A program made the position numbers and the translations under genes. Under the pieces are notes generated by a model. It saw only the letters and a list, made by a program, of their open reading frames with translations. It was not told where the DNA came from and ran no database searches. A DNA stretch of 61,740 bases, counting the filler, from Hausera hauseri (Eukaryota), in assembly GCA_046269625.1 (NCBI GenBank). It is 12 parts of 12 records of this genome, joined end to end, with 100 filler letters (N's around TTAATTAATTAA, not from the genome) between each part and the next. Parts side by side here need not be neighbours in the genome. Positions count along the whole stretch, not along the records: positions 41,980 to 47,184 come from JBJURY010307721.1; positions 47,285 to 52,084 come from JBJURY010431805.1; 10 more parts are not named here. One strand, given 5' to 3'. Shown here in pieces: positions 13,760 to 61,740 of this stretch. Every line of letters starts with the position of its first letter. The stretch's first letter is position 1.

Positions 13760-15288
13760 CAGATTTAATTGTAACTAGATCTTGTGTATTAGATTTGTTT
13801 TTGGTATTGAAGTGGACTGAACAACACTTTGGGTGTGCTGGTACATTATACACTCGATCCGATAGTTACCATTATCTTTTGACCATAGATAACTATGTTG
13901 GCAGTCCAATATCCTACGGGGAAGGCAGTTTGTCCAAAAAGTGATGCGTTACCTATATCTGAAGGATTCGCTCGTTTTATCTCATGTTGATATTCTAATG
14001 GTACGATCATGTGTCGTATTAAGTTCATTGTTGCTCTTGGGTCGATTAAAGCCCTTATGTAATGGTTTCCTATGTATAGAGTAGTTCGGGGTCTTAAATC
14101 ATGCAGTTGAAGTATGGATTGAAGTTGTCTTTTAGTAGAATCTTCGACTACGGGTAGTAATGAATATACTCCAGCAGTTCTGACCACACCGTTTTCTACT
14201 ATAAATTTTTCATTATAGGGTAAATTAGTTGTATTGTTTTCTACTAAACTTGCAGTAGTTTGCAGTGGTGAGGTTGGTCAAGATAAAGTAAATGTCGGTG
14301 GAGATGCACATTTAGACATTATATCCGAACTCGCTTTCCATTTTTGTGATAGCGAAGTTAAATCGGGATATTGACTTGTTGGTCTAAGTTGCTCATTATC
14401 TAATGATTCAGTATGATTTGCAGCTTTTGACATAACCATTATTTTTTATAATAACCATGCTCACAGTAGGGATCCTTAATTTCCTTTCCAATTTTTTTGG
14501 TGATTAAAGGCAAATTCTGTATGTTTGTATTTGTCATAGGTAGTTCAGTGTAAGAATTATTCTCGATATTCATCATTGGTGGAAGTTTTGGTGGCGGTTT
14601 TTTCGTTTTATTTTCAAAGTTAACATGCTTTCTAATAGGTTTTTCCATCTTTTTTCTTCATGCGTCGTTAGTATTTTGCCAAACGATGTGAAGTCAGCGG
14701 ATAATATTTTCAATGAAAATACTGTAAGAGTGTAAATTTCATAATCATTTAGTAATGATGAAAGAATGGCTTTTGCTGTTTGAATGCTTAGATAGATGGT
14801 AAATATTCCGGCTGATAAAGTGCCAAATTTTATGAAACCTCCCAATAAGGTTTTTAGAAAGTTCATCGTAACTTCCTTATAGTGTTCTGGACTGAGTAAC
14901 TTTTCCAATCTTGCATCTTGAATTCCGTCATCTAATATGCGATGCAATGCTTTACTTAAAGCTTGTTCACTTTGAGCAGGGTATCTCAATTCTTGAATCA
15001 TATTGTTTATTTTGCCTCTAGTGTAGACAGTGGTTTTCGAAATGTCCGTGAACAAATTCTTTTGTACAGCATGTTTTAATGCAGTCATAGTGAGTCTTTT
15101 GGGAATTTTACATGGTTTCTTTCTTTTTGGTAATACTATCCAAGTACCAGCATTATCATATTTTATGTAGGGCACAGTTTATTATTTGAGTTAGCACAGT
15201 GTTTCTATCGGCATTACTCGGGTGATCGGTTATACATAACGAATTTCTTTTTTCTATATTACGGTAATTTCTACATAGCATTTCTTTT
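13760..15288 (-). pseudogene. Retroelement fragment: C-terminus of chuvirus-like glycoprotein followed by aspartic protease
   Basis: KCYVEITV..PITRV, GGFIKFGTLSAGIFTIYLSIQTAKAILSSLLNDYEIYTL..; downstream RPRTTLYIGNHYIRALIDPRATMNLI; homologous to 46850-48430. Confidence 0.8.
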
Positions 15289-19105: not shown

Positions 19106-19109
19106 CTAA

Positions 19110-25340: not shown

Positions 25341-25379
25341 ATATGACAAGAATACAATGGTCGCATTCATGGACGACGG

Positions 25380-27759: not shown

Positions 27760-28565
27760 AACCACCGCGGGTTGCACCGAGTGCTAATCGATAATGTACA
27801 GTGCCAATCCATAGTGTTCTGGGTGCACTATTGATGGGCATAATTTGGTATCGATCGAGCACATCGGAACCGTTTCCATAGCGGTTTTGTGAAAAGTGCA
27901 AATCGACCGTTTCACGATGCAGTATTGATCGAATCGATCAGACCAAAGTGCTAATCGATAGAGCACAGTGCGAACATTGATTATCACAGTGAAGGTGTGC
28001 AGCACATGTGGAAATGGGTGCAAATCAATAATAACGGTTTTCCGATAATTCCAATATTGATGATTGGCACATTTTGAAAGTGCAGTTCGATCAAATAAAG
28101 TGTGCTCTATTCTACTGTGAAATTACAATTTAAATTTATCGTCCCGTTTTCAAATAGTATCGATTCAAGATTTCACTAATGGAGAGTAGCCATAGGCCTT
28201 CACAGCCAGGGGAAGCAAAATTCGACAAATTTTTAAGCGTGGACACAAAGGAAATCCCACATGTTTACCCGGACCACTATCTCAGTTTTCCAAAATTCGG
28301 TGAACAACTCTAATAAATGTCGATTTTCACAGAATAATATCGAATATCTTGACAACCATAAATTATTCGAACAACTTGAGAGCGCCATTCGATTACCCAT
28401 ATGTGAATACATCTACAGAGGAATTTTCACATGTGTCGTACATGTGCAAGTGTGCCTTATTCAATAATAACGGTTTTTCGATAAAACCTATAAAGTTGAT
28501 TTTAACACACAAGGAAGTGGATATCAAAAAATGTAAAAGCGCACACATATAGAAACTATTATGTG
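27760..28565. repeat. Second copy of the ATCGAT/GTGCAC-rich interspersed repeat
   Basis: Shared blocks such as caaagtgctaatcgatag, aaattcgacaaat, cgataaaacctataaagttgatttt. Confidence 0.75.
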
Positions 28566-38904: not shown

Positions 38905-41879
38905 TCAACTACTCATATCATCAATTTCCGTTAATGGGGAATAGAAAAAATTCGACAACGGATGCTCCTGGATATAATCGTGACCCATCTCTTCATACGC
39001 CTCCTTTGATATGCTCATGCTGTCGAACTGAGTATGCAGTGCCAATTTACAAGCACCTTTCCATGCATCCAAAGTGGGATTTTCTACCAACAACCGACAA
39101 CTTCACAAGGATCTATCAAAGAGCGAATACTTACCGGCAAAATGAATAATCGGATCAGGCAGCGATTCCGGCAAAAATTGCCGTATATCGTAATTTAGCC
39201 TCTCTTTCAAATTCGGCATTTTGCTAACACTGCCCGTGACGAAAATATTTTCCGCCAACTGTTTCGAGTTTAAGCCGTTTCTGTCTTGTAGATGTACCAA
39301 ATACGTTCCGTTAATCATGTTTTCTAATACTTCCGTCAGTCCTGCGTCTTCGTACCCGATCATGTACGGACAAAATATTATTTCAGGAACTCTGGAATCA
39401 TGTTTCATTTATGTCAGCTAGTTTGAATTATCCTTTGACTCACTCGTTCTCGGAGATTATTCGAAAGTAAAGTTCGATCGATTTTCCAAGTTTCATACAA
39501 TAATTTCCGAGAACGAGAGAGACAAAGTAACTTCTATTTGAATTTTGGTTTTATTATTGGACGCACACATACTCTATCTTCATTGGTTAAAATTTGTTAC
39601 AATCTGATTGGCTACTCATATCGTTTGAAATTATGCAATTTGAAAGGGTTACAAAAATCATTTTGGAGATTATTCGAATACCATCAAAATACCTCATCTG
39701 TTCGGTAGTCAAATGCAGTCTGTAGTACTCGTTTATGTCAACCTTCAAATGGGAGTTGTTGTCTCTGAAAATACCGCATAACAATTGCCGTAACAACATA
39801 TTTTGAAAAGAACTTGGAAAATTCCGGATCATATTGAGTCAACAAAATTTCCAATTGAGTCATCTGTTTTTGTTCGGTATCGCTATCATCGGTCATATCG
39901 TCGCCATTTTCATTATCTTCAGTTCGGTTTGATGTTTGCGTTGTTAACTTCTTTTTCTAATGGACAAAACAATTAAATTCATATCGAATATCAGTGATGA
40001 TATCCTTACGAATTCTAAATTATCCGTGAGTTCTGCGGCTAATTTTCGAATTTTTCGAGCTTTCTGTTGGCGTCTTTCGTCGATACCGACACTGGGGCCG
40101 CTAACTGACATAGATACAGACGAATTCGTTCGTTTCTTCATTCGATTGTCAATCAATGATTGTCGTTGATGTCGCAGATTCATAACCCACAACTTGTACA
40201 AAATTTTATTAATACCATATTCCAATTATTATTACAGCAAAATCTTCTTCCCGTCTTTCTTCCAGTTTACTGACTTCTGTTAAAATCTACAAACACAGTT
40301 ACATTTGGCCGCGATACGATTTGCTTTAACTTTGTTTCGCTGAACCTCTTTCATGAGACGAATCTGTTCCCGTCTCATGGCCGATGCTCGCATGAGAATT
40401 TGCTTTTGTTTTTGTCTCAATTCATCTTCGTCTAGTTCTTCATCAGAAATATCGATCAAGTCAAATTTTGTTTTATCATCAATCATTTCCTAATTTTATG
40501 CTCATCTTAAATTATGATGAATATCGTTCAGAAATTTACAAACAACAGTTTTGTTTCATATTTTAACAAGCGCACAAAATTTGCAACCCTTCAATACCCC
40601 CCACCCACGCAATTATGAAGTATTCGAGAAGAATCAATTAACCGAACTTCCGCAACGTACGATGATGAAAAACGAATAATTTCCACATGAAACATCGACC
40701 CAAATCAAAACTTATTTCCGCCCGTGGGAAATGCTTCTTCCTGGCACATTTCACCTCAAATATAAATTACACACATACATACACACACTAAGAATTTGGA
40801 CAAAAATTACTACCATATTCGGTGGCCATTCGATTCCGTTAATTTTACACTGTATTTTTTCTATTGTACTTTCTAGATTTTTTATTTCGACAAGAACCTG
40901 CTCGTGATTTTCGAATCCCATTGACTTGAGTGTCTTAAAGATACCGATAAATAATCATGGCGATTCATTGACAACTCGATACTTTTTTCGAGTTTTCCTT
41001 GGATGATATTAATTCTCGTAGATTTGTGAGATTTTCCTGAGCAGTTGCTAACTGTAACACAATTATCGAACAAAATACAATTCGTATCAAATACGTCACC
41101 TTTTCTTGATTCTTTTTCAGATGAATTTCTTTACCACGGAGACTCTGTTGTTTTTTCTTCTCTTCGATTTGTTCGGTTGTCAGAATTCGTTCAGACTGTA
41201 AAACACACAGACTGTTCAACATCTTATTCATTGGGTTATGATTGTTTACTTTTTTATACGGTAGTTGGATGTTTAGTGAATGTTTCGACGCATATTCGGG
41301 ACATTTCCATTTCATCATTTCACAACGGTAATCGATACTTAAGAAACAAGTTTTCTTGTGTAGGTACTGCGATATACGAAATGATTTGGTTTAGCAATGC
41401 GTAGAATTCGTTACTTCACCCATTTTCAAATCAATTAAATTCTGATGACAGGAATATTTCAATTGAAGTAATCTCGCCATTAGCGAATCCAACTGCGAAC
41501 CGCCAATGTTAATCTTTCTGCACAGTTTTGCTTCCATTCTACCATTAAATAACGGGATTAAATGTACTGTTTGATATCCGAATGATATTATGAGAACAGT
41601 ATCGGCTTAAATTATGGATTATTAAAAAAATAAATAAATAAAATATACAAATTCTAATAAAATTTCTAGTTATCAAACAAAGAAACTTACTGGCAACTGA
41701 TTCTAAATATTGCGGATTATTATGGGCATAACTCGACAATCCGTCAATGTACTACGCAATACTCTGCACTCCGTACGCTTCAAAATAATTCTGACATTTC
41801 TGTCGACAAAACCAATTAACTCAACGAAATATATAATAATCAAACGTTGTCGGCACGTATTCGGATTACACTGAAATTT
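38905..41879 (-). pseudogene. ACTR5: Actin-related protein 5 (INO80 subunit), intron-containing, 5' truncated by gap, with lesions
   Basis: CNPNTCRQ..SEL.FEAYGV, KINIGGSQL..RLLQLKY, IQLPY, DLIDISDEELDE, RVPEIIFCP, NIFVTG, LDAWKGA, EHPLSN; TAG at 41752-41754 and frameshift near 41785. Confidence 0.85.
39433..39527. repeat. Intronic hairpin / MITE-like element
   Basis: 29-bp arms (39433-39461, 39499-39527) with 3 mismatches. Confidence 0.7.
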
Positions 41880-44789
41880 NNNNNNNNNNNNNNNNNNNNN
41901 NNNNNNNNNNNNNNNNNNNNNNNTTAATTAATTAANNNNNNNNNNNNNNNNNNNNNNNNNNNNNNNNNNNNNNNNNNNNAGTGTATCATTTGCAGAGACT
42001 AGTAAAGCTAGCACAATAAAAGATAATTTGGAAGGAATCTACGGAAAACGAGGTGATATAAGTATGATTATCGAGATGCAGGACTTACGAAGATATGTGA
42101 AAAATATGGGCGAATCTAATAATCCACAAGTAATCAAGGCAAGGAAGGAGTACGAAGAGAAGCCGCAGCAAATGGAGGTTTATCATGGGTTGAGAGAACC
42201 AAAAACGGAGTACGAAAAAATTATAGCACATACTAACATGGACAGGAAGAAAAATCTAAATCAAGCAGCGAAAGAGGAGAAGGAAGAAAAACCGACTACG
42301 TCTTCAAGTGTAGACTTGGACGCAGATACCGAAATCGTGTCTCAAAATAAAGAAAAAACAACGGACGAAGTTGAAAATGAATTCATTGGGACAATAATAG
42401 AGGTAGAAGCCCCTCCCTTAGGAGAAGGTCGGGAACTCGTTCACGATCCCCTATTAAAAAGGTTGTAGAAAAGGAGGAAGACTTCACCATCACTTTAAGA
42501 GACGAAACAGAGTTAAATACCCCTGTAATAACTCAAGACGTTCCGGAAACAACAAATATTTCATATATTGATGAAAGTAATGAAATATGTCCGTTAACAT
42601 TTAGCGAAGAGGAATCAGAAGAGGAAAAGTCTATAAAATTTGGGAAAATGAGAAAATATTGGAAAAATGCAAGCGAACTAACCAAAACAAGAGACGTACT
42701 GAATGATCCCGAAAGGCTACCGGAAAGCTTACAGAAACTCCAGAAGATGAGCAAACAGTTAGATATCTCCGGAAAAGAACAACAATTCATAGAGAATCTA
42801 TATAAAAAGCTTAAACCCGGTTCTCAGAAGAAGGACGAAAACACACCTTACAAACTGCAAGAAACGCCACAAGACTTGATAGAAAGTTGGCGAAATAAAT
42901 TAGAATTGTGGACAAGGAGTGAAATTGATTTTTCGAAAATATGGTGGAATAGAAACGAGCCATTTCTCGAGCAAGTTAATCAAGCACGCGGATTATTAAG
43001 CATATTAAAGGATAACCCAAAACTAAAACACGTAAGACGTAATTTAGAAGGGTTAATATGAGATAGAAAAGGCGATACTTTCTTACCTCCATAACAAGCT
43101 AGGATACGAACTGACCAATGCCGACTTAGAGATATTGGGTATAGACCCAATCGATATTCCACCTCTAATAGCAATGTGCAGCCTGATAAGAGATAACTCT
43201 CGGAAATATCCAGATTTTAAAATTTGGATGGAAAGAGAAGACGAAATACGAACCAAAATTAACGACTGTAAAATCGGTGTAGTTCACCCGGAAAGAACAG
43301 AAGCACAGAGAATAATACGTGCTTGTCTTCTCGAATTAGACGAGTATAAAGAAGAATTCAACTACATGAAGCATATTATAGAATTTGTACGAGGGCCAGA
43401 TCACGAACTAAAAGAAGCCCTTGAGATATTAGATGAAATAATCTACACCAAACCGGCAATATCCAAACAACTAAAGAAGTGAATTGACTTGTTACCTTTA
43501 ATAGTAGGGATAGTAAACGAAAGACTAAGAGAATTCACCGTGGTTGAGCCCACAATGAGGCACCAATTGGAGGAAATGTTGCTGGATATCGGTACGATGG
43601 AAGATGAAGCGAAATTACGAACTAAATTCGAATTATTTCGAGAACGTGAATTTATGAGCAGGGATCAAGAGCGAACAACATTAACAGCGATATATAGTAT
43701 GATAGAAGAAAAGGAGTTCTACAGAAAAAGAAGCAAGCTAAGTGATCTTCAGCGGAGTTTAGCGAACATCCGTTGAGAAGGGATACAGAACCTAATGCAG
43801 AAACCGTTGAAAGAAATCTCAGCACAGGAAATAGAAACATTAGAAGTATGTAACGATCACCGAATTGCTCTGGCGCAAACACTACAATATCTACAGAATC
43901 CAGCAGAATGGACACCAGGTTTCGACCTACATTGCCACACCGAACTAACGGAAATTCGGAAGGATCTTCAGTTGACTGCCGACGAATCTAAGTTCATAGG
44001 CAGGCTAATGGATGCAATAGATCCGGACGCTGAAGTATTAAATCAAATGCACAAATTAATCCTACTATTAACAGAAATGGCAGAAATTGACGAAGTAGTA
44101 GCCAGACGACTGACGAATCAAATACGCTCGATAAAAGAGACTCGGTTACGTTCCGAGAAAAGACAGCGCGAACTAAATGAATTGCTGAGAGAAACAGAAG
44201 TTTACAAGAACAAGTATTCCTTTACGGAATCTGAAATGAATGACAAAACGGAATTTATAGAGATGGCAAAGAGACAGAATCGCAGAAATGACTAGTTATC
44301 AGGAGAAAGCCCTAATACAACCAGAAGAAATGTGCCGATTAATAACATTGATACAACAAGCGTGCGAAAATAAAGACGGATTTAGGATGTCCGTAATGAA
44401 AACATTGCAATCGCAGATAAGATAATTACGAGAGAGAGTCCAAGTCGGACAGGCGGCACTAATGAACTACAAGTTACCTGACGCGGATAATGATGCCGAG
44501 TGGGATGAATATTTCCAAGGTCTAACCAAGAAAAGTCCAAGAACTCCGATACAAATTTATGAGTCACCAACTGGTGTGCAGAAAACGAAATTTGATGTGC
44601 AAATGTTACTTGATCCCACGCTAGCTGAAAAGGAATTAAGCAGTATGTTGAAAATAAACAAGCGAAGATAAGTTAAGGAAATTGATTCCGACCTTGACTA
44701 AGCTATTCAGCGAAAATATCGCATACAGCGCCGTACCCAAGCTCTTAATAAGAGAGTACGCCAAACTATTGAAAAATAAACCGGAAGCT

Positions 44790-45010
44790 TAAATTAAAGT
44801 GAAAGTATCGTCTGAAGGAATGGATGACGAGGAATTTGAATGCACTACCTATACCACCGTTTGGGACATAAAACAGCGGATAATGGATAAGGGTGGTAGG
44901 GAAGGGGTTAATTACCGACTCTACTTCAGAGGTAGGATATTAGATGATCTAGAATTTCTAATAGACGTAGGGATTATACCACTCGAAGCGAACCAAATAA
45001 TAGCCATAAT
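44790..45010 (+). CDS. Ubiquitin-like domain within the element polyprotein
   Basis: TTVWDIKQRIMDKGGREGVNYRLYFRGRILDDLEFLIDVGI fits the Ubl pattern T(I/V)..(V/I)K..I....G......RL.(F/Y).G+.L.D...L.D.GI. Confidence 0.7.
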
Positions 45011-45191
45011 CGACAGCGAGCAAACCAAAGATGAAGCCATGAGAAAGGCACATACAGAACATTGTGTTGGGAAAATCATGGGGATCCAAGATGCCGCAAT
45101 GTATTTCGAATACTTACAGACTGATGATGAAAAACCGCAGTACGATAGGAACTTAGTCCCCCTAAGCGAAACCTTACCACCAATAAAAGCG

Positions 45192-45218
45192 AAACGACCG
45201 GTCGGAAGACCGAGAAAG
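45192..45218 (+). CDS. AT-hook motif
   Basis: KRPVGRPRK. Confidence 0.65.
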
Positions 45219-45710
45219 ATAAAAGAAATTGATTATAATGTAGATATGATTAGAGAATTGAGACAACTATTGGTACCAACCCCGAGTTCAGATAACGACG
45301 AACTAATTGAGCTAATGAAAGACCTAATCAGGTTAGTCAGCTACACTGGACTCCAAGGCGACATATTATCTGAAAAAGAAAGATTAATATATAATATAGT
45401 TCGGACAATGAAGACTTCGCGATTCAAATAATCGAAAAGCACCCTTCCTGACGAAACCGTAATCGACAGAATTATGATAGACAATACGATGGAAGAATTA
45501 AGGAAAGTCTTAATATATTTAGCGGTAAGAACTAACCCTCTCCGGGAAAACGAATTTGACAAGACAATTGTGTTAGCTAGAAAAGCTGCGAGAAGGGTAC
45601 CTAAGGAAATAAAATGGACTAAATTATTTGAAAAACAGGACAATGCGAAAAGGACCAATAACTTAGAGGACATAGTACGAAACATCTCTTCGAGAAAAGG
45701 GAACGAATTG

Positions 45711-47460
45711 ATTTGGTTAATCAGTCTACTAACTATAATGATGTTAGTGAAGCAGATGGGAGCAGTCACCATATACGACTGTGAAAATTTAAAGTGGGCC
45801 AGAAATATTCCTTGATGGACTTAGAAACATGTGAGGATGCGAGGTCCCACAAGCTCCAGACAATAGAGAAGAGATATATATTATATCAACAACGTGAGTT
45901 AATTGCAATGGATGCAACAGAATGCATGATAAATAGGTCTCGCTGCATATTTCATTGTGGTAATATGCACGGCCATTCTTCAATAATCAAACCTACCACA
46001 CCATTGATACCAATGAACGTGGATATGCAACATTGCTTAGGAGCCCGGTCAACCGGCAAAATGGTTTGGGACAGCATGGAATTGGAAGCCCAAGAAGGAA
46101 AAATAATTAGAGCCTACTAAGTGGCAGTAGGAAAATTGAACATTCACACCGGTTATTGTGTTGGGGAAGAATATGACACAAGGAAGGGAATAGAAGGAGG
46201 AATTAGTCGTAGATTTTTATGAAACCGAGTTAAGATCCTTAAAAGCGATGTTTCATAACGTTACCAAACTATTCAGCGAAAATCAGAAATGTCACATTCA
46301 TGATGGTGCTTGCACGTTCCGAATTTTGGTTATCGTATGGAATCCACCCTCCAAGATGGATTGCAATTTCATCAAAATCAGAGTTAAAATTTAATGAGAC
46401 CATGGGAAGCGTTATTCGAGCAATTTACATACTAATACCAGGTCAAGAGAAGATGTAATAGAACAATCCACACCGACGATATTAATATCAGACGTGCACG
46501 GGTTAAAATTTATTAGAAAGTTTATGTTATCACGTTGCGATGTAGTTATGTATGCCACTAACTACGAAATATTTTTTGTAGCAGAAACAGAAATCGACTT
46601 GAAAACGTATGATTTAAAAACACAAGGTGTGCGGATTGAGGCTTACCTCAAAAACCGAGACGACTATTTCTATTACAAAGGGTAGACCGGAATAGCGGAA
46701 CTATATCACAAAATGATAAGAAATGACTGCAGATTAGACCTGAAGTCATAAGAACTAAACTGGCTTTAATTTACGCCAAACCAGAATTGGCATCACCAAT
46801 TATTCCAATGAAAGACGGTGTTTTCGGGCGAGTTACAGGAGAAGTCCTATTAACTTACGAATGTGAGAAAAGAGACGTACCAATCAACTTAGAGGAGAAA
46901 ATATGCATGCAAGAATTACCCGTCATCTATGAGATTATGCCGAGATTAGCGATGCCACTCACCAGAGTATTATTGGCGAACTCAACCGAACCAACGATGC
47001 TGAAGGAATGTAAAACGAGCTTAGGCCAACCAAGGTTTAGACGAAGTGGAACCGATTGGATAACTCTACCAAATGGAGGTACGGCCGCAGCCCCTAGTAA
47101 ACTAACCGGGACAAATCTAATCAAAGGATTATCGGAAGATAAATTCGAAGATACAGCTAATAAAGGAATTTATAGGCCAAAAGANNNNNNNNNNNNNNNN
47201 NNNNNNNNNNNNNNNNNNNNNNNNNNNNTTAATTAATTAANNNNNNNNNNNNNNNNNNNNNNNNNNNNNNNNNNNNNNNNNNNNGGATTCTTAGCCATCT
47301 ACTTCTTAGTCCAGTTAATTAAAGCAGTGATCCAAGCTATTATAAACGGATATGAAATATTCACCTTGACAGGATTGTCTTGCAAACTTTTGACCGCAAT
47401 TATCACAACCTTTGGAAAAATTCTTAAGGTTTACAAAGAAAATCGCTGGAAAAATGAAGT
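45711..47460 (+). pseudogene. env: Chuvirus-like (class III/gB-like) envelope glycoprotein with signal peptide and C-terminal TM
   Basis: LIWLISLLTIMML..AVTIYDC, YSLMDLETC, LYQ, ECMINRSRCIFHCGNMHGHSSI, GYCVG, C...DGAC, GEVLLTYEC, CMQELPV..MPLTRVL, KGIY, TM GFLAIYFLVQLIKAVIQAIINGYEI. Confidence 0.78.
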
Positions 47461-48109
47461 AGAACGCCACGTCGGGTGTTATAACCGCAAATGCCGAGGG
47501 AGGTTTTTGATTTTGTATAGACGTAAAAATAAGTCAACAGTAACACGAAAGGATAATTCAGATGATGACGAGCCTAAGGGAGGAGAAGTGAGATCTAGAA
47601 TGAAGATGCACAATATGTACTCAGTGATTAACGCGCTGTTACCTACAATGCCGCCAACAGCACCAATATGTGAAGACTGCGACCGCAAATTAATCACACC
47701 ATGTAGATCAGAAATCTATCAAAAGCCCATTAATTATGAAGATCCTTATAAGAAGAAAAAACAATATGTAGTACTACGGAAAATGAATATTATCAACCAA
47801 AGACCTACAGAGAACAACCATGGAATATTGTACTCAAAAAGAATACCGCGCCACATAGAATCGAAATCAACGATCTGGGAAAAACCGAAACTGTGTTCGA
47901 TCTCGGGCTAACTACCTCAGGAACCGCTAATTAGCAGTCGCGTCAATGAGACGGCAAATAATAATTTATACCCAAACAGAGAATTAAGACAGTTAAGAGA
48001 AAATATTTTCTCATCGCCAGAAATAACGATAAACGGACACAGTCTCTACTATAAAACGGTCAAAGATAGCGTCAAATTGCTAAGGAACAGCAGCAGAAAG
48101 GAGACCCTT

Positions 48110-51100
48110 CGCTAAAATACACATCGAAGATTTGGAAGTGTATTTATTAATCGACACAGGATCGCAAACATTATTTATAAAATATGACTCTATACCAACC
48201 ACATTGCGAGATCAGCTATGTCCGCTATTATCGTCAGATCCTGGTAGCGTAGGAGCATTTGGGCAAGTATCGAAGCCGAAATTTAAATGGACTCCTACTG
48301 TTCATATGATGGGCCAAGCGCTCCAACATAAATTTGCGATAATGGACCAGTTAACAAATGATGTAGTACTAGATTGTGATATATTGAAACAGATACCAGG
48401 CATAGCAATCGATGTGCATAACGGAAAATTAATTGACCTCGAACCAATAAAAGGGACAAAAGTAATAAAGGAAAGGAAATGGGGCGAAGTATGGATTCCG
48501 GTAGATGAAGACATTCCGCCCAGAACTAAAATGATAATTATCGCACAAATTCGTCAAGACAAAGACCTACCAGTATATTCGAACCTTAAGAGAATATCGA
48601 TCCAAACCTTATGTTTAGCAATATCTTATGTATATTAGTGACGGGAAGAATACCCAGCGGACTAATTAACAATGCAACAATTCCGGTAAGATTTCACGCT
48701 AACACTACTTTAGGTAACACTTGCAGAGTATCAGAAGTAACGATATAGGAAAAGCCGTATAAGTGAGCTGAATTTCCGCCCTACGTTAAAACCAAACTCT
48801 CTCCTGAGGCATATTGCAAGTTCTACAAATTACTATGTTAATACCGTTAAATAATTGCGCAAAATGAGGAAGACATAGGCAGAGCAAAGGCCCTGAGATT
48901 AACAATCCCATTAAGAAAGAAACCATGCTCGAATGACAAAATCAATCTAGAAGAACAGAAAATGCCCAAATGGTACCCACTTCCTCATTCATTAAGACCG
49001 GAGATAACCAAAGAATTAGAGCGAATGTTAAAGGCCGATATAATTCGCCCAAGCTACCGATCGTGGTATTCACCTATACTTATGGTTAAGAAGAAAGGAA
49101 CCACGAAACATCGGTTTTGTATAGATTATCGCGCATTAAACACACTGATGATGAAAGACTCGTTCCCTCTACCATCAGTAAAGGAAGCTTTAGACAAACT
49201 ATCAGGAACAAAATGGTTCACCACTCTCGACTTACAATCGGAATATTGGCAAGCGGAAATCGAAGAAGAAGATCGATATAAGACAGAGTTTAAGACACAC
49301 GATGGCGTATACGAATTTAATGTTATGTCCTTCGGCATCACCACAGGACCAGCTATTTTTACTAGAATGATGAATAAGATGCTCATGGGACTTGATCATG
49401 CTTTCGCATATTTAGGCGACGTAATGATAGCATCAAAACAGAGGAAGAACACTTAAAAGACATTGAAAATACACTCATGTAACTGGAACAAGCAGGGTTG
49501 AAACTAAATTTAAAGAAATGTAAATGGGCACGGAACGCAGTATCGTACCTCAGACACATAGTTGGAGAAGGAGGATCAAAACCGGATAAATCCCTGCTAA
49601 ATAAAGTAGCCGATTGTATGGAACCGCAAAATCAAAAAGAGTTAAGACACTTGTTAGGCCTATGTGGGTATTACGCCACTTACGTACCGGATAATTCTAA
49701 AATTAACGCACCACTATACCGCTACTCAAAAAAGGAACTAAGTGGAGATGGACGGAAGTGGAGCAAAAAGCATTCAATGAAATAAAGAAAATTTTGACAA
49801 GCGACCCAGTTTTTAGAAACCCTGATTTTAACCTACTATTTATCATTAAAACCTATGCAAGTAAAAAAGGTATAGGATATGAACTAGCTCAGAAACTAGA
49901 AGATGAAGAACTAGAACACCCAAAAGCCTATTGAGGACGCTCATTAAAGAAAGCAGAAAAGAATTATTCGGTTACTAAATTAGAAACGTTAGCCGTAAAG
50001 GAAGCACTACGACACTTTAACGTTTATGTCTATGGAGAGAAGATTATAATAGTGACCGATCACAAAGCAGTTACGACATTGAAAGGATGATCTAATAACC
50101 AAACATGTAGATTAAACCGTTTGATAGAGAAAATCTCACAATATAGCATTGAATTCTAATACAAACTAGGCACTAAACACGTCGACGCAGACGCACTATC
50201 AAGGTTAAAGACAAAAACCAGTGGGATTATTACAGCGAAGAAAACGCAACTCGAACAAATAGTTGAACATCAAAGAACTCTAACCCTGGATAAAACGATC
50301 AGGACCACCGCAGAGCAGGCTAAAGATAAGATTATTCAGTAAATTGTTGAATTCACACAAAACGGCAAAATACCCAAAGGACGGCAACTGAAGAAGCATC
50401 TGAAGAAACACGGACACAAATACAGCGCATCGAATTAAGATAATATCCTATATTATGAACGAAAAGGAAAAAGACTAATAGTTATTCCAAAAGAATTAGG
50501 CGTCGAAGTAGTCATGGCTGAACATGATTCGTATTTAGCTGGACACATGTCTTGGAAGAAGACATTGGAAAGGATATTAAATAGATACTATTGGCAAAGC
50601 ATTTACATCGATGTAAAGAATTGGGTAGGTGCTTGCGAAGTTTGCGCGACAAAACAAAAGGAAACGAAAGGCTACGTAGCGGAATTAAAACCCATAAACG
50701 TACCAGATAGGCCCATGCAAGCTATGTTTATGGATATAGTGGGACCTTTGCCTAAAACTCACAAAAATGACATATATTTTAACATGCGTGGATCAATTAA
50801 CACACTTCGTCGAACTAGTGGCACTACTAGATTAAAGGCAGAAACTTTAGCCAACGCAGTGGTAAGAAAAATCATCTGCAGATATGGATTACCAGAACAA
50901 ACCTTACCGGATAGAGGAAGAAACTTCACAAGTGAATGATTCGAAAAAATTACTAAGATATTCGAAATCGAACGATTAACTACTACCGCGTATCACCCCC
51001 AATGTAATGGAATGGTCGAGCGAATGAACGCAACAGTCATTCGAATACTATCAACAGTAGTGATCAAAGACCAAAAGGATTGGGACGAATTCCTAGAAAG

Positions 51101-51135
51101 AACACAGTTTACAATCAATACTACACCACATCCAA
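48110..51135 (+). pseudogene. pol: Ty3/Gypsy pol: protease, RT, RNase H, integrase
   Basis: LIDTGS; WYSPILMVKKK, RFCIDYRALN, LDLQSEYWQ, YEFNVMSFG, YLGD (from YLDD); NYSVTKLETLA, TDHK, DADALSRL; HDSYLAGH..CEVC, MDIVGPLP, DRGRNF, YHPQCNGMVER. Confidence 0.92.
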
Positions 51136-51139
51136 CGAC

Positions 51140-52084
51140 CCATTAAAACGGATGCTAGAAGAAAATATAGCTAGTATAACAAAAAACCCAAAGGATAACT
51201 GTATCCAAATAAACACAAAAGGACGGTTGATTAAAGGACGAGTAATCACAGTTCAATTCATAAGGGATGACAAATCAACTCATAATCAACAGTAACGTCA
51301 AACTGACGTCGAAAAGCCGAATAAATGTTGAAAGTTATCTCAGAGATATAGATATAAAATCCGGTTAGACTTATATGAAGTTCGACTGAACCAGTCGAGT
51401 ATTTACCTAGGAAGTTATCAATTGGAAAATCCAATTTGGGGAATTCTGCCTAAGACGAAAACAAGCAAAATTACGACTACAAAAACAAATACAACCACGT
51501 CTACATCCACCAAAATCGTCCAAACGAGTGGATTACCTCAGAAGAATCTAGAAATGATTCCTATAAAATATTGGACGCAACAATATGAAATAACGTTCAT
51601 TGTGGAAGAAGCACTGAATTACGACGTAAAAATAAGCTGCCGAACATTATACAACAATCAGAAAGTGACACTGGCTAAAGGAAGCCATCGAATTAAATGC
51701 ACCTACTTAGAACCCAAAACAGACTACATAATACAAATAGGTGCAGAAAATAAACAAAGTAAAACGTTTACGGTTCGCTACCTAAACGAGATTGTCTTAA
51801 CGAAACCATTAACTAACGAGGAAACAAAAGATGAAATTACGACTACCGCTAAAACGAAAAAACTAAATAGACAACTTTGTCATTAATATAGATTGTTGGA
51901 ACGTCAACGTTTGCTCTCATAATTTTTATTGCACTTTGCCGATTGATTACCAAAAATTGTTACAGTAATCGTCACAAAATCAACGAGAGGGAATTAAGGG
52001 TGATGATACCGAAGGATGAAATCAATGATGGAATAACCTGACAGTTACAGATAGAGTTATTCCGCCATCAAACAAAGAATTGGT
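51140..52084 (+). pseudogene. Putative type I membrane protein: FN3-like domain(s), Thr-rich stalks, TM, cytoplasmic tail
   Basis: CTYLEPKTDYIIQIGAEN (FN3 L.P.T.Y...V.A.N signature); TKTSKITTTKTNTTTSTST; LSLI*IVGTSTFALIIFIALC-RLITK. Confidence 0.55.
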
Positions 52085-52600: not shown

Positions 52601-53989
52601 CAATGATTTCCGACGCCGTCCACATCATCGCCCAGCTTGGGTATGGTTGGAAAATCCCCGCCCCTGGCATCTCCGCTAAAGCGGAATTTGATCGTTTGTA
52701 ATTACTCATTGAAAAGTTAACACCAGTTGTTGAAAATTTTATTGTCTCTCAAAATACTCATTTGGGAACAAATTTTCCGAAATTACAAAATTAAATTATA
52801 CTTTTAATATTACATTTTTAAATTAAATTCATGGTTGGATTTTTAACATTTAAAAATGCTTCGAATTTAAATTTAGAATTTCAGTTCTCGATTATATCCT
52901 CACAATATAAATGTGATATTTTACCAATGACACATGCATAAAGTATTTTGTAAATCTGTGTAAATTAATTTTAAGTTTATTCTACAATTGGAAAAATTAT
53001 TATAAATATCAGTTTTTAAGGTTTGTAAACTCATGTCGCACATATCATTAATTAGCACATTCTATGCGAGTACGTGGATGTGAAGCTCGTGTTAACTCGT
53101 TTCCTGCGCAGAATGTGTTTCTGAATTATAACACTTAGGAAATTCAAATAATAATTATAAATTTCGATTTTACTAATATTTAATTCTTGTTGGGCGTTTC
53201 TAAAATTGTCCTTCTCCAAAACAAACCCAATACAAAATAATACACCATTGTATTTGTTGAGCTCAGCTCATCGTCATTATCATCTTCGAAAATTGTGCAA
53301 CTGCAGCAGGGAACCATAGCGACGAAACAACTCAGCTAGGCACTCAGGTTTCTTTGGAACGATAATCTCAACACTGTCGGTTCCGCTTTCTACAACAAAT
53401 CGTAGCCCTCCATCACCAGCATACCCAACCGCTACACCTTCCAGAAATTTGTGTCTGAAGGATGCGGCTTGAAATTCGACGCACCAACCACGAATCATTG
53501 TCTCCACCCCAAACAATTCAGATCATCCATCGATTCTCCCAATTAACCCAAATTGCCACACAAACACCGCAGACACTCATTTCACAAATATTCGTCCTCT
53601 TGCTCCAATGGGACATTGCATCATTAAAATTTAAAACAAGACCCAATGTTCGAGTACTTGCACACAATAAAACTCCAAGGCGAATAAACTCATACCTTGT
53701 TGAGTGATCACTCCCCCCCCATCCTAAGCCGAGGTAGCCTCTCTGTTCTTAACAGGGCCATGGTCAGAAACAACTGATGATCTTCATGAACAAAACTCAA
53801 TTCATCGTAAGACGTATGCTTACAGACTCTCTCCACACTGACATCTTTAATATCCGTCTTTGGAACGACAAGAATTAATAACTTTTCATCAGCCGTTTTG
53901 TAGTCCAAAATAATAAAAAAGAAGCAACTTGATTGATTCCATTGTCGCACATTCTTCCTTCTTCCATTCCTACACCAATTTCAAGTGAA

Positions 53990-55245
53990 GTTAATTCAAA
54001 CGCACCAGCATCTGTAAACGCATTTGTCTTCAATAGCATTTTAATGGCCTTTAATCCATCATTAATAGCCTCTTTGATTTGTGTTAAAGTATGTTTATTC
54101 GGTCCTCTAATCAACAAAGTAACTGACAATGGATTTCTGCATTCCTCAATAAATGTAAATTTCACATCTCCAAGAGCATATTCATAAACAAGACCGGTAT
54201 AACCCAGACAATCTGGTGCTAGTTCTTCAACACAATTTACGGCATAATCACCACAGGCTAACGCCATTCGTTCCACGTTTCTTCGCTTAGCACGTCGTAG
54301 AGCTAAAATTCCTTCTTTGGCAAGCATATCCAACGACAAAGGATCAATTCCTTTTTGGTTTATCACAACAAAATTATATTTAGAATCACCTTGGGCTGCA
54401 GCTTCATCACAAACCTGTCTCTTCAGAGATATAATTTTTTGAACTCGTTCGTCAGTGAATTGTCTTTCGGCTTGGACTAACTTTTCTCGTTTAACTGCAC
54501 TCTTGTAGAAAAAACTACTGTTTATTTCAGTTTTTTCATATTCCAACGACACATTGCATGTTAAGATAAATGCATTTTTAACCCTCTTGGGCATGTCCGG
54601 ATGACGACCACCATAGTTGAGTACTAATCCCTTGACCAATTTACTATCCATATCTCGTTTATGTTGCATTTGCATAATTTCCAAACGATGAAGATCCAGT
54701 GCAGAATATGAATCATAAACACTCAATACAGCGTTTACGATATGATCGCTCAACATTTTAGCCAAATCGCAGTCCAATTTCGTCTTTACGGACGTTCCAG
54801 CGACGTTAACTAAAGTTTGACGATCGAGCTTTTCAATATCTGAAAACGGTTTCGTTATTTTCATCCTTTCTAAGACTTCAAGTGCCTTCACTTTTGCAAG
54901 ATCGAAACCTTCGGTAATTAGTCGAGGATGAAATGACTGCATATATAGTCCATCATACATTAATCCATCAGCCTACGTCAATAATTCTGCGATCATCAAT
55001 ACGATGCTTGTCGTTCCATCACCGGTAATATGATCTTGAGCAGCCGCAGCTCAAGCAATTAAACTAGCATCTTTGGTTAATTTAATATCTCCAGCTGCAG
55101 ATACCAACATCTTTAAAGTTCCTTTCGGGCCAAAATTGCTCTTTAAGACATCAGAAAGGCCTTTATAAGCTGTAAGATTGATATTGAATGCATTCTGTGA
55201 CTTCGCATATTCAGCTTTGGGATTTAATAAAGCTATTGACGCCAT
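53990..55245 (-). pseudogene. CCT6: T-complex protein 1 subunit zeta (CCT6) pseudogene, essentially intronless, 3' truncated
   Basis: [93 protein letters not shown]; in-frame stops and deletion of the GNVLL..HPT segment. Confidence 0.92.
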
Positions 55246-55599: not shown

Positions 55600-56996
55600 T
55601 TTAAGAAGGGAGATCGGGCCCGACTATGGGCCCAAGGCAGCGACAACGGACGCCCGGCCGTGTCCAATCAAATGGACCAGAGGGCGCCGGCCTCTGTGGG
55701 CACCACATCAGCCCCCCCCGTGGCAAAGTAANNNNNNNNNNTGCTATACTTGCTGAATGTGACTCTGCGTGTTTTGTCTTTGTGCTGCGTGTTTATTTGC
55801 AGAGTTTAAGGTTGGAAAAAACGGTCAGATTTTGTTGTTAGTGTTGTGTGATGCCAAGACGAGTCAGAAAGAAGAGAAGAAGAAAGTGAAAAAGGAAGAG
55901 AGATTGTTGAAGACGGATGGTTAAAGGCATTCAAGAAAGTATTAGAATGTGGAGGGATAATAACAGGTGTAGTGGCGGATAAAGGAAGAGAAAGAGAAGT
56001 TGGAATTGAATGATGGGAGACAGTGGAAGTGGAAGATGAAACAGAAGTTGTAGTAGAGCGAGGAAAAGGGATAAGGAAAGAGGTAAAGAGAGGAGGAAGT
56101 TGTGAAGCGGAAGTGAAAGGAGTAAAAGATGATGTGTGAGGAGAAAGGGGGAAGAAAGTGCCGAAGATGAGGAAGGTGTGGAAAGATAGGGACAGAGAGA
56201 AAGAGAAGACGGCGAAGAGGTACAAGGCGAAAGAGAGAGAAAAGATGGAGAAGGCAAAGGAAAGTAGTTGTAGGGTGGTGTGCAAGAGGTTGGAATGATG
56301 ATAGGTGTAGATCGAGAGGTTGGTGAAATCCAAATGGTGTTTGATAGAGGAGGTATTGTAAGAGGAGAGAACAGGTTGTTATTAGGGGATGGAGGAAATA
56401 TTGGAAGGCTTGAAGGTGCAAAATCAGATAGGGAGAAAGTGGCTGAATTGTGAGAAGAAATTGAAGTGGCAATTTTGGGAAAAAGCATAGGAGAAAGTGG
56501 ACTAAGACATTGAGCAGAGATGGAAGGTGAATTCTTGGACTGCTGTGCGTCGTACAAAGATGTTGTTGGAGACGATACTTCTATGGAAGACGTATCGTCG
56601 ATGAAGAAGGCCGGTTTAATATTATTTATGTGAACGGTCACTTCTTTGTCGTCTTTGAGAATGATGATGTGGGAGTGTAAGCGAATTTTTTTGCAAGGGC
56701 CGACATACTAAAGTTGAACACCACACGGCGTCTGATTCTTTAGCCAAACGAACTTGACAGTATATAAATCGTCGGGTATGTAGGGTTTTATTTGCGTGTA
56801 ACAATCTGCAAAATGAGTCTTTGCTGATCTCAACAAAGTGTCTCTGTACAGCTTGTATGGTTTCATCTGTAGGAGAATTGTCCAGCTCAGTCAGCTCAAA
56901 TAATGATCTAATGGAAGTGCCAAATAATGCTTCTGCAGGTGAACAGCATGTAGAAGTAGATGGTGTGTTCCGCCAGCCAAGCAGAACGTACGGAAG
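55600..56996 (-). mobile_element. CsRN1-like element 3' end: integrase C-terminus, long S/P/T tail, PPT (55711-55720), partial LTR from 55707
   Basis: LGWRNTPS..CSPAEALFG, VHINNIKPAF, GGGGGGGG PPT, TGTGGTGCCCAC LTR start homologous to 13092. Confidence 0.85.
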
Positions 56997-57261
56997 NNNN
57001 NNNNNNNNNNNNNNNNNNNNNNNNNNNNNNNNNNNNNNNNTTAATTAATTAANNNNNNNNNNNNNNNNNNNNNNNNNNNNNNNNNNNNNNNNNNNNGGAT
57101 TATCCATTTTTATTGTATATATTTATACAACATTTACAAATTGTGCATTCATTCCAAATGTATTTATTATCTAATTTTATTATTATGCATCCTGTTTCAC
57201 AAAATGTACAATCTGAATTATTTTAACTCATTTTATTCCATATTTCTTATAATGTTGTGAG

Positions 57262-57392
57262 TAGTTATAAAAGGAGGGTTTGGAATTGGTTTTTCAAATT
57301 CTTAAAAAAATTTTCATAAGTGAGCGGTAGCGAGCGAATAAAAATTTCTTTAAAAATTTGAGGGCAGGCCCCAAACCCTCCTTTTATAACTA
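57262..57392. repeat. Palindromic MITE-like element
   Basis: Perfect 22-bp inverted arms tagttataaaaggagggtttgg / ccaaaccctccttttataacta plus inner paired arms. Confidence 0.8.
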
Positions 57393-57419
57393 ATAAATTA
57401 TTCCAGTTTTTTGCGATAG

Positions 57420-60400
57420 TTTTGGCAGGTGATAAGCTAAGAGGTGAAGTAGAAATAGGCGAAAGTATAGAAATAGGGTGTGGAGTAGAAATAGTGATAA
57501 AAGTAGGAGTAGAAGGAAATGCAGAAATGGGTGGAGGAATGGAATTGGTAGGTGACGATGTAGGAACAGAAACGGGAGCAGCCAAAAAACGTCTGGTAGA
57601 CTGGGGAATTGAAGTCGGGGTAGAGGTAAATACAGGGGTGAGAAAGGAGGTTGATGCTTCGGTTGGTGAGGTATTGTCGATGTAAAAGGCGGTTTTTAAA
57701 TTAGTAATATACACTACAACTTCTTTCCCGTCTTTGAGGATAATAGCGTTGTGCGAATACAGCTGCACCAATTTATATGGTCCTAAGTACTGTGGCTGAA
57801 AACCTCACGGTGTCTGTTTTTTTAGCCACACAAACTTTGCCGAGTATAAGTCTTCGGGTATGTAAGAATTCTCATTATGCAAGAGCCTGCAAAACGAATC
57901 CTTGCTGATTGTGACGAAATGATCCTGTGCTGCTCGTATCCTCTTGTCTCTTCAGGAGCCGTTAGTTCAAACAGTGGCAGTACAGGGGTTCCGAATAAAG
58001 CTTCCGTTGGTGAGCATCCTGTAAAAATAGACGGAGAGTTCGCCAGCCAAGCAGAACGAACGGAAAAAGAGTAGTCTAATTTGTGTTGCACTGTGCAAGG
58101 ATTTTGAGTGATGTTTTCAAAGTTTGGTGGAAACGTTCGAGAAAGCCGTTCGATTGGGAATGATAAGGTTTTGTATGAATGTGGCTTATAGTCAATCGGT
58201 TGACCAGGGATTTAAACAGATTTGACTCGAATTCCGGACCTTGGTCTGAGATGATATAATGAGAAGACCCTAACCTACTAATTCACGTACGGATGAAAGT
58301 ATCGGCGATATAATAAGACGATATAATGAGGAGACCCTAACCTACTAATCCACGTACGGATGAAAGTATCGGCTATAGTGTCAGTGTTTGTGCTCCGCAC
58401 TGGGATTGCTTCCGGCCATCGTGAGGAACGGTCCATCATGTTGATAGTAAATTCGTGGTCGTTGTTTATTGGAAGAGGACCGACGATATCTATATGTACT
58501 GTTTTAAAACGTGATGTGAGGGGGAAATGATATAATGGTGGTTTTAAATGTTTTATATTTTTAACAAGTTACGCACCGTTTAACTTATGCTTGCACATTG
58601 GGCGCATTGACGGCCAAACTACTTAACGTTGGAGTAAACAAAAAGTTGCTTTGGCACCAGGATGATGTAACAAATGTATACCATCAAATTCTTTTTTCTG
58701 TAAAGATTTGGCAAGAATTATTTTAGATTGTCCTGGTTTGGAAGTATTTATGTCAACGCCGTCAACGATGTGGTGAGACTTGAGCGACTTGCGGATATCT
58801 TGAGATGGCTGATTTTCTTGGAGTTTTGTCTGAGTAACAATTGGCAAAAATTGATTGAATCGACTGATCTGGATAAAAAATGGGTAACACCGTCAATATG
58901 TTTAATGTCGAAGTTAAACGTGGATAAATATGAAATTTGTCGCTCTTGTCGAGTTAAAGGGTGTTTCATTGCCATTATATTAATCAGCGGTTTGTGATCA
59001 GTCTGCATAACAAAATGACGAGCTGTAAGTAAGTGAAAAAAATGTCTTAAAGCAAGAACTATTGCCAGCAGTTCCCGATTGAAAGTTGAATATCTAGTTT
59101 CTGGCGGCGTTAATTTTCTGGAAAGGAATTCTAGGGGCTAATTTTCGCCTTTATACAACTGCTGTAGTATGGCACCTACTGCGATGTTTGGTGCATCTGT
59201 GGTCAAAATTAGCTCAGCGTCAGGCTTAGGAAATGCTAGTATTTTAACAGTTTTAGTCCTTCGCGAGGCCTATCATACTTATTAACCAGTTGTAGTGTCC
59301 ACATGATTTTCTGGTGTTTTTTTCCTCCCCTTAAGTGTGCAAAAGTGCCGTGAGTTCTGAACAATATTGGGTATATTTGTGGACGAAATTCAAGGTACCA
59401 AGAAAACTGCGCATTTCTGTGGTTGTTTTAGGTAGTTGGACGGTTTTAAGAGTCTCAACTAGATCAGGCTGAGGTGAATAACAGCTTAAAGAGATAATAT
59501 GTCCAAGAAAATTAACGCGTTTTTGGAAGAAGTAACATTTTGTAAAATTGAACTGTAGGTTGAACTCATTACGTCGTTGGAAAATATATCGTAGGTGTTC
59601 CTCGTCTTGTTTAGTGGAAGAAGAAGCAACCAAGATATCGTCAATATGTGTGTGCAAAAGGGAAGTGTGAAAGGATTGAGTCAACCTGTCGCTGAAAAGT
59701 CTACGCAGCATTCCAAAGACCGAAATGAATGTACAAGTACTTATAAAGACCGAAAGATGTGGAAACTGCAGTTTTCTCGATGTCTTCCGGTGCGACAGGA
59801 ATTTGATGGTATGCTTTGGCCAAATCAACTGTTGAGTAAACTCTAGTAGAATAAAGCCGATATAATATGTCTTTGATTAATGGTAGTGGATATACATCAG
59901 TTATGCTTAAAGTATTATGCTAGCGGTAATTGCCGCATGGTCGGAAGGATCCATCTTTTTATACAACGTGGAAAGGCGAAGAGCATGGGGATTTAGATCT
60001 GAGAACAATACCTGATTGTTCAAGTTCCATAAATTTCGCCTCTGCTGCCTGCCTGCGACGCGGTGACAATGAATGGACTTTTTGTAGAATTGGTCTTTGG
60101 TGTTGTGTAATTATATGGTGGTAAATGCCATTTATAGGGGTGGAATTTCGATCTTTCTGAAGTATACGAGGACAAGAAGTGTGGATGAATTGTTGTAAAC
60201 GTACTCGCAGTTGCTGGAATATTGGACGTGACGATGAACCAAGGTTGCTAGCAGTACTTGGTGAATGTTGGTTGATTGTCGGCGGGGAGTCGAGTGGAAT
60301 TTGATGTAGGATGTTCGTGTCTGAAACCTTATTCGAGTAAAAGTTGGTGTTCAATGATTTTACTGAAGATGCAAGATCATGAGCGTCGATATTGAGCTGT

Positions 60401-61740
60401 GACTGGCTATCGACATTGTTCTTTGAGAGCTTACGAGGTAAAACGTGATAGTTATGAGAATTAGGAAGTGGTGTTGACTGTTTTAAGATTGATTTCCTAC
60501 TTATTGTTGGATGTGCTCTCGTCGGAGGGCTGCCTATTTCTGTACTATAGTCTTCAGGTGTATTTGATTTCAGACGCCGTTGGTTGAAATTGTATAGCAA
60601 GTTTTAGTACGACAGGAAATCGCAACCAAGTATTGCCGTCTGGACTTTAGCAACTGTAAACGTCCAGTAAAATAATGAGGAAAATTTTGGGAGAGTGAAA
60701 GATAATTTGCAAGTTCCGGCAATATGAAGGGGTTGACCGGAAGCGGTGTATAACGGTTCTGTTTTAAATAAAGAGTGTTGAACTGGAAAAGAAAGTGGTA
60801 GTAATGAGATCGCTGCACCGGTATCAATGAGAAAGTCCATAAATTGAATGTTGGAGGTGGAAAAAGCAGCTTTTAGTATAAAGACTGCAAAAGAAATGTG
60901 GTGGAAAGAAGAATTAGATAAGTTGCTTTTACCAGAATCTGCCTTGATTACTGGCGGCAAAGTCAGTTTTTCGGATTGATAAGTTGAGACGGTTAACGTT
61001 ACAGAAACTGGAACGTTTATCAGTGGTGTAGTTATGGTTAGTTTTATAGTGGCGGCCTGAAATACAATTCCAAGCATTTGATCCAAATTTTGCATGATAG
61101 ATGCAAACAATATTATCTTAGTGCAGAGGCGAGGAACAATATCTACAGCCTAAACAGCATTTATTTGCTTTTTTATTAAATTTGTTATGATAATAACATA
61201 TAAATGATCGCGTTGGTGACAGTGTTCGATTTCTTGACGCAGAACGTGTTCGATGAGATGAGGAAGCATTCGGTCGATCTGAGACAAGGTCGTTCAGATT
61301 ACCATTGATGTTATTGATGGGATGTTGTAGTGAAGCATTTTCGGCGCGTAAATGGTTTAATTGGTGTTCAATAGATGTATGTCGTTAGCTGTCATCGGTC
61401 GTAATTGTGGCCGATATGATGGGTTGTTATTGTATTTGTAAACTTCGTGTGCTTTATCGGCCAATTCAGCTTGTTTATCTAAAGCTGTAGAATCCTCAAC
61501 AACAGTAAGTAAAGCCCTAATTTGAATAGGTAAATCATTAAGAAAATATCGGCGGAGTAAATCCGGATTGTGTTCCTTGGTGACACCCAGAGTACGTAAG
61601 TGGCGCAACGAGGTGCGTAAGAAATCTCTAGGCTTTTGTGTTCCCATTGCGTTTTCATTAATGAATCGTTGTATTATCGAGTCAATCGGTGATTCTGTTA
61701 GTTTTAACACGGCGTTGAACAACTGCGTATAAGTTATGGA
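57420..61740 (-). mobile_element. CsRN1-like element, decayed gag-pro-RT-RNase H-integrase-tail
   Basis: QKPRDFLR..LADK, double CHCC, FLIDTGAAISLL, ILGCDFL, SPCSSPFHVV, HIDDILV, TDHKPL, DIVGPLP, SDQGP, LGPYKLV. Confidence 0.9.

Follow-up and report, generated by a model that had tools for sequence, protein, structure and literature searches.

A decayed, abundant Ty3/Gypsy element of Hausera hauseri with a chuvirus-type glycoprotein ahead of pol, likely a Burro-like endogenous virus

The window analyzed here is a stretch of 61,740 nucleotides from Hausera hauseri (GenBank assembly GCA_046269625.1) made of 12 records joined by 11 copies of a 100-nt spacer of the form N44-TTAATTAATTAA-N44, which has stops in all frames. 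These spacers are artificial and non-genomic, and a 10-N gap also occurs at 55732. The element under study is a Ty3/Gypsy-type retroelement on the plus strand that carries a viral glycoprotein upstream of its pol domains, namely protease (PR), reverse transcriptase (RT), RNase H (RH), and integrase (IN). It occupies record A (JBJURY010307721.1, 41980-47184) and record B (JBJURY010431805.1, 47285-52084). We scanned the window with Pfam in twelve frames, with X in place of stops. Natural relatives, numbered with a P, came from a phmmer scan, run in full with the frame of the glycoprotein as query, which gave 63 matches; 17 of these, picked mainly for length, were scanned by Pfam, and a weaker word-index protein search returned no relatives. 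The features of the element and of a second copy are listed below, with E-values given as E or, for profiles, as iE; TM denotes transmembrane, Ubl ubiquitin-like, gB glycoprotein B, and env the envelope glycoprotein gene.

41980..44660, plus strand: decayed helical, charged N-terminal region; record A starts within it; stop-free pieces of at most 226 codons in shifting frames
44664..45026, plus strand: helix and Ubl module; profile of P0007, P0011, P0019, and P0068, iE 3e-11, 35.5 bits
45192..45218, plus strand: AT-hook-like motif KRPVGRPRK, read off the sequence
45219..45707, plus strand: helical segment located where the relatives have a Bcl-2-like domain; Bcl-2 undetected
45708..45776, plus strand: internal signal-like hydrophobic helix directly before IYDC; hydropathy 1.82
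45771..47184, plus strand: chuvirus-type (class III, gB-like) glycoprotein ectodomain, frameshifted and ended by the end of record A; PF24664, E 4e-19
47185..47284, no strand: artificial spacer falling inside the glycoprotein; about 68 codons lost (P0002 residues 872 to 940; the second copy agrees)
47285..47465, plus strand: glycoprotein TM segment and tail at the start of record B; first 57 residues match PF24664 model positions 553-609, E 6e-7
47466..48083, plus strand: linker from env TM to protease; TM frame kept as far as 47908, where a stop and a shift to another frame follow; no Pfam match
48084..48440, plus strand: aspartic protease, LIDTGS at 48147-48164; RVP weak, E 0.03
48480..48900, plus strand: PR-RT spacer with homology to that of the relatives, at the place of the dUTPase-like domain in Burro; within tblastn matches to P0002, P0003, and P0064
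48974..49734, plus strand: RT, frameshifted, catalytic motif broken; RVT_1, E 6e-21
49749..50144, plus strand: RNase H of Ty3/Gypsy type; RT_RNaseH_2, E 5e-29, and RT_RNaseH, E 4e-25
50484..51140, plus strand: integrase zinc finger and core; Integrase_H2C2, E 6e-16, and rve weak, E 0.002
51569..51805, plus strand: FN3-like domain shared with the C-termini of the relatives' polyproteins; four-relative profile, iE 5e-6, 18.9 bits
51892..52038, plus strand: TM helix (51892-51966, hydropathy 2.25) and tail behind the FN3-like domain, in another frame
13790..15288, minus strand: second, diverged copy within one record, with glycoprotein C-terminus, TM segment, linker, and protease in that order; PF24664 model positions 394-611, E 7e-22; RVP, E 0.01

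The glycoprotein matches PF24664, the Monjiviricetes fusion glycoprotein, and its part in record A is collinear with residues 400-872 of P0002 in three frame pieces. Over 60 aa, the start of record B and the second copy share 48% identity. Identity of the glycoprotein to its best relatives is 32-37%. A hydrophobic helix precedes the glycoprotein at the matching position in P0002 and P0003. When relative P0005 was folded from a 36-row alignment, the model reached a predicted local distance difference test (pLDDT) score of 81; all PDB matches listed were herpesvirus gB (best E 1e-13), the top BFVD match was the Tacheng tick virus 4 glycoprotein (E 1e-41), and the next BFVD matches were chu-related and other negative-strand virus glycoproteins. 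The glycoprotein is of chuvirus type, and the class III gB-like fold is that of the model predicted for P0005. A first-pass annotation of this DNA had proposed a viral fusogen here; its expectation was borne out by PF24664 in record A, record B, and the second copy, and by the predicted gB/chuvirus G fold of the relative.

The same annotation placed the fusogen before pol, and this position is supported by the Pfam order, the second copy, and the natural relatives. PF24664 was found in 16 of the 17 scanned relatives; P0050 was discarded as a false positive of phmmer (Kelch/Ig). A protease lies downstream of PF24664 in the same open reading frame (ORF) in 11 of the 16, RT as well in 5, and RT upstream in none. 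In seven natural relatives the glycoprotein and pol share one ORF of 2,146-4,844 aa, and the cluster members P0064 (4,844 aa) and P0068 (3,003 aa) likewise run glycoprotein, PR, RT, RH, IN. In the second copy, PF24664 matches at 15286-14630, and the env-to-protease order that had been reported at 13760-15288 was recovered on the minus strand of one record as PF24664, TM, linker, and RVP. These observations bear on the idea that a glycoprotein fossil of non-retroviral origin, an endogenous viral element (EVE), lies beside or inside an ordinary env-less gypsy element. In insects, such EVEs have been described with gypsy fragments on their flanks but without clear signs that gypsy had captured them (PMC10084718). 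However, the order recurs in the second copy, the seven single ORFs refute the idea at the family level, and the Ubl and FN3-like flanks are common to those relatives, so that we find it scarcely credible.

Downstream of the glycoprotein, pol has the features of Ty3/Gypsy elements (Metaviridae), with the order PR-RT-RH-IN and gypsy-type RNase H and integrase. The distance from the TM start to the protease motif is 288 codons, close to the roughly 270-codon linker first reported. The record B protease is 26% identical to that of the second copy over 74 aa (E 9e-7). Between PR and RT, the profile match of the spacer is weak (iE 0.21), and Pfam returned no dUTPase match there. The best PDB match of the record B RT is Ty3 RT (4ol8, E 6e-30), and its identity to the best relatives is 45-54%. 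In an 11-row tree it falls in a clade supported at 99/100 with P0002, P0003, P0018, P0064, P0068, and the RT of the window record 21334-27120, outside of which the two other gypsy RTs of the window fall. No BEL/Pao-specific Pfam model matched in the window or the scanned relatives. The assignment of pol to Ty3/Gypsy made in the first-pass annotation agrees with these models and with Ty3 as the best solved RT match. Matches to the relatives stop at 51140, and the C-terminal part of integrase is apparently missing.

We then considered whether records A and B belong together. The order of domains on one strand, as originally described, is upheld by Pfam, profiles, and hydropathy, but the DNA is not continuous: the two records meet across the spacer at 47185-47284, an artificial join overlooked when 41980..52084 was taken as one contiguous stretch. 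Because this spacer cuts the glycoprotein gene, the env-to-protease junction is unobserved in this copy. P0002 aligns in order over record A (residues 400-872) and record B (940-2051) with a gap of 67 residues, and the second copy is 27% identical to the end of record A over 100 aa and then has about 68 further residues before its record B-like start. One could argue that the records stem from separate copies or subfamilies and adjoin only in the file, in which case the layout of the family would be the same, while this 10-kb element would not be a single locus. The spacer is artificial, other adjoining records of the window are unrelated, and the family is so abundant that its fragments are common; other records contain more Gag and pol pieces from this lineage. 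On the other hand, record A ends and record B begins within a single gene and strand, with some 68 codons between them and no overlap, and the spectra of likeness to contigs agree between the two. We regard separate origins as unlikely, though well worth keeping in mind; the records probably derive from a single locus or, failing that, from the same family.

These spectra come from run X1, the one run listed as containing the stretch, with no RNA run listed, in which 9,775 contigs fell on record A and 12,783 on record B, covering 30/30 bins in each, with nearly identical likeness spectra of about 7/20/45/29% and 6/18/46/30%, respectively; run X1 may itself be the source of the window, and summed depth is not a copy number. 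The counts and spectra are consistent with a single abundant and aged family whose members carry both the N-terminal extras and the FN3-like end. The copy in records A and B is dead, as its stop-free runs do not exceed 226 codons, its frame shifts repeatedly, and the catalytic motif of its RT is broken near 49410. Accordingly, the giant single polyprotein proposed at first is seen in the ORFs of natural relatives but is not visible in this copy, for which we infer it from the sequences of those relatives.

The N-terminal region gave no Pfam match at E 0.05 between 41980 and 44660 and no tblastn match to 13 relatives, and no Gag was seen there; run X1 contigs cover it like the rest of record A. 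A Ubl/SUMO-like domain lies upstream of Env in record A. As a control for the profile matches, we searched 20 shuffles of all 72 frames, in which the Ubl profile reached at most 7.7 bits and the FN3-like profile at most 6.8 bits; Pfam ubiquitin matched at the Ubl module with E 4e-5, below the cut-off. By eye, GRP motifs resembling an AT-hook precede the glycoprotein in P0003, P0007, P0011, and P0064. P0011 has the order CCHC, Ubl, Bcl-2, glycoprotein, the last two weak, and a Bcl-2-like domain is weakly present in P0005 as well as in P0011. Accessory domains vary among relatives (Bcl-2, ankyrin, extra proteases) around a fixed Env-before-pol core. The relatives' ORFs, together with the Ubl and FN3-like profile matches in the window, indicate that the layout, including its extras, belongs to the lineage.

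Several observations on individual sequences concern these extras and the Gag region. Tandem aspartic protease domains occur in P0003, P0007, P0064, and P0068, some after integrase and in up to six stretches in P0064, which also has ankyrin and C2H2 domains. P0002 is HBK71150.1, a 2,627-aa env-pol polyprotein deposited as a protein of a Flavobacteriaceae metagenome-assembled genome, and likely represents animal DNA in a bacterial bin. Elsewhere in the window, a Gag-like open frame with a CCHC knuckle at 7620-8672 (plus strand) runs off its record end, unlinked to record A, and resembles the Gag of P0011 (E 2e-11) and of P0006.

The host is a flatworm, and likely a free-living one, judging from CCT6, which is encoded elsewhere in the window: its top named matches are flatworms, and a 28-row tree has a 99/99 split that places it with the flatworms but not within the clade of the parasitic Neodermata. 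This CCT6 (chaperonin zeta) sequence, at 53875-54972 on the minus strand, is an intron-free stretch of 365 codons with 74% identity to its best match and is possibly a processed copy.

Comparison with known systems shows that the layout has been published, so the initial view that the architecture is undescribed does not hold; the comparisons that follow draw on parts of the cited papers. The planarian element Burro encodes Gag, Ubl, BCL2, Env, PR, RT, RH, and IN in one ORF (Arkhipova & Yushenova 2019, PMC6431247), an order that P0011 matches. Burro and GYPSM1 are giant gypsy-like planarian elements (Grohme 2018 and Jurka 2007, cited in PMC6431247); the marks of Burro1-4 and GYPSM1 in the strict sense are a BCL2-like domain between Ubl and Env, MATH/BIR/ankyrin/Smc domains, a dUTPase-like domain between PR and RT, and lengths of >30 kb with long LTRs (long terminal repeats). 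The element described here shares with them a flatworm host, a Ubl before a mononegavirus/chuvirus-type Env, Env before PR-RT-RH-IN, and many copies. The relatives also have one giant ORF as Burro does, and decayed Burro copies are described in Dugesia japonica. In planarians, levels of BURRO1 RNA increase upon smedwi-2 RNAi (PMC8532177). GAG-ENV-POL elements of Ty3/gypsy type with a gB-type ENV are likewise reported in Nematoda, Bryozoa, and Platyhelminthes (Chary & Hayashi, PMC13524379), with at least 9 flatworm rows in the supplement and 36 Nematoda rows in supplement 1; the same paper describes 114 arthropod elements in which a chuvirus-like glycoprotein adjoins gypsy pol. The C1a flatworm "errantiviruses" (Smed_errantivirus_1-6) of that study resemble our element in order, Ty3/gypsy pol, and gB-type fold, as well as in the motifs YxxYQ...EC...CG.HSH, which we recognized by eye in the window and its relatives. 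They differ in being intact (1-215 copies), whereas the record A/B copy is dead.

Other systems were also compared. The mosquito BEL/Pao element Anakin has a glycoprotein of the same family (Dezordi 2020, in the part available). Unlike Anakin, the element described here has a pol with Ty3/Gypsy RNase H and integrase zinc-finger models and with Ty3 as its best solved RT. The nematode elements that Sacco and colleagues presented in 2022 are reportedly built as a continuous gag-env-pro-pol ORF. They are like ours in having Env before pol, a gB-type Env, and a metavirus pol (Sacco et al. 2022, cited in PMC13524379), but they differ in host, and the CG.HSH pattern is absent from those Nematoda_C1 ENV rows that are shown; by eye, neither the Nematoda_C1 nor the Bryozoa_C2b ENV rows shown match the motif pattern of our glycoprotein. 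Troyka was rejected as a match, as the part of PMC12440569 available states that no Troyka encodes an envelope and the element here has one.

Taken together, we consider it very probable that this is a decayed Ty3/Gypsy element, abundant in its flatworm host, in which a chuvirus-type glycoprotein precedes PR, RT, RNase H, and IN. It is likely a Burro-like endogenous virus, and an intact member would make all of these parts as one polyprotein. We file it as Burro-like/flatworm GAG-ENV-POL and not as Burro1-4, since Bcl-2 was looked for and not found. It is an abundant, decayed, new member of the Burro-like group, the layout of which was already known. Its weight is limited, since the copy is dead and its layout, here in a further flatworm, was already in print; what it adds is that the Burro-like Env is specifically of chuvirus type (PF24664, gB fold).

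A number of points weigh against this placement. The junction between records A and B is unseen in sequence, and no Gag, LTR, or primer-binding site is linked to record A, as the records end inside the element. No run X1 contig piece among those listed spans record A or B whole. The record B RT sits on a long branch (1.36), and its sister pairing is unstarred (90/85) in a tree built without BEL/Pao or named gypsy reference rows. Burro1-4 and Smed_errantivirus were compared through their published descriptions and, for motifs, by eye. A Bcl-2-like domain had no match in the window with a four-relative profile or Pfam, but a very diverged Bcl-2 fold may be present, and MATH, BIR, ankyrin, and Smc had no Pfam match in record A, which is incomplete and decayed; Bcl-2-like, MATH, BIR, and ankyrin domains, all undetected in records A and B, set the element apart from Burro and GYPSM1.

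The missing domains could also mean that a flatworm gypsy lineage unrelated to Burro acquired its chuvirus-type glycoprotein independently and in the same place. This alternative would be consistent with the identities of only 32-37% (glycoprotein) and 45-54% (RT) to the best relatives, and GAG-ENV-POL elements are not monophyletic, with flatworm ENVs in more than one configuration (PMC13524379, in the part available). However, the Ubl before the glycoprotein, the PR-RT spacer, the host group, and the glycoprotein motifs all fit Burro/C1a, and accessory domains (Bcl-2, ankyrin, extra proteases) come and go among relatives. We therefore judge independent capture improbable and retain a Burro-like origin.

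The FN3-like and TM module after integrase is kept in record B and in four of the five relatives that extend past integrase. A C-x-C..L.P.T pattern is invariant in 5/5 aligned FN3-like sequences, and the best PDB matches are the FN3 domains of Tie2 (E 9e-4) and EphA2 (E 0.01); the predicted fold, with six strands, is not confident (pLDDT 45). A second hydrophobic helix follows integrase in P0002, P0003, and P0068 by hydropathy and in P0064 by eye; this second signal, like the integrase tail, is apparently missing from the record B copy. The text of PMC6431247 on Burro that was available, its Fig. 2A aside, makes no mention of an FN3-like/TM module after IN or of an AT-hook, and we found no published description of the module, which figures or supplements may already show. 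It is conceivable, if doubtful, that Burro-like elements encode a second envelope protein (signal, FN3-like domain, TM) serving as the attachment partner of the gB-like fusogen. Were this so, a retroelement would possess a two-protein, herpes-like entry apparatus made from one polyprotein crossing the endoplasmic reticulum (ER) membrane twice. The conserved module could be an attachment protein or a host-signaling decoy. A purine tract at 51985-52002 followed by TG was considered as a polypurine tract and 3' LTR start and was rejected, as it sits in the TM-tail frame and contig depth, when summed, does not measure copy number. Summed contig depth climbs in the last bin of record B (51925-52084).

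From this topology and general knowledge of viral polyproteins, we propose how the intact element could have worked. The Gag, helical, Ubl, and AT-hook parts would be made in the cytosol, after which the internal hydrophobic signal would thread the glycoprotein into the ER, with signal peptidase cleaving before xYDC. The glycoprotein TM segment would halt transfer, so that PR-RT-RH-IN would remain cytosolic, tied to the Env tail until released by the element's protease, and Pol might reach budding sites via Env and not as Gag-Pol. A second signal after integrase would insert a small FN3-like type I membrane protein. The trimeric gB-like protein could then fuse an enveloped particle with another cell, where a new insertion would arise through RT and IN.

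The remaining records of the window contain further elements and gene pieces. A third decayed pol of the same RT clade lies at 21343-25650 (plus strand), with 59% identity to P0003 and P0064; its likeness continues past integrase into the extra protease-like region of P0064, and it is broken at about 22110-23200 by an insertion that shares repeats with 27800-28565. Fragments of another gypsy family, with 65-75% DNA identity among copies, occupy 15389-21233, 57097-61740, 10600-12950, and 55744-56995, and the RT of that family falls outside the env-before-pol clade. At 417-1712 (plus strand) lies an RNase H/integrase fragment with 27-28% identity to the relatives, from yet another gypsy-type element that is more distantly related. 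Finally, pieces of an actin-related gene, which we take to be ARP5-like, lie on the minus strand at 39103-39408 and 40965-41390, the first matching Pfam Actin with E 6e-6.

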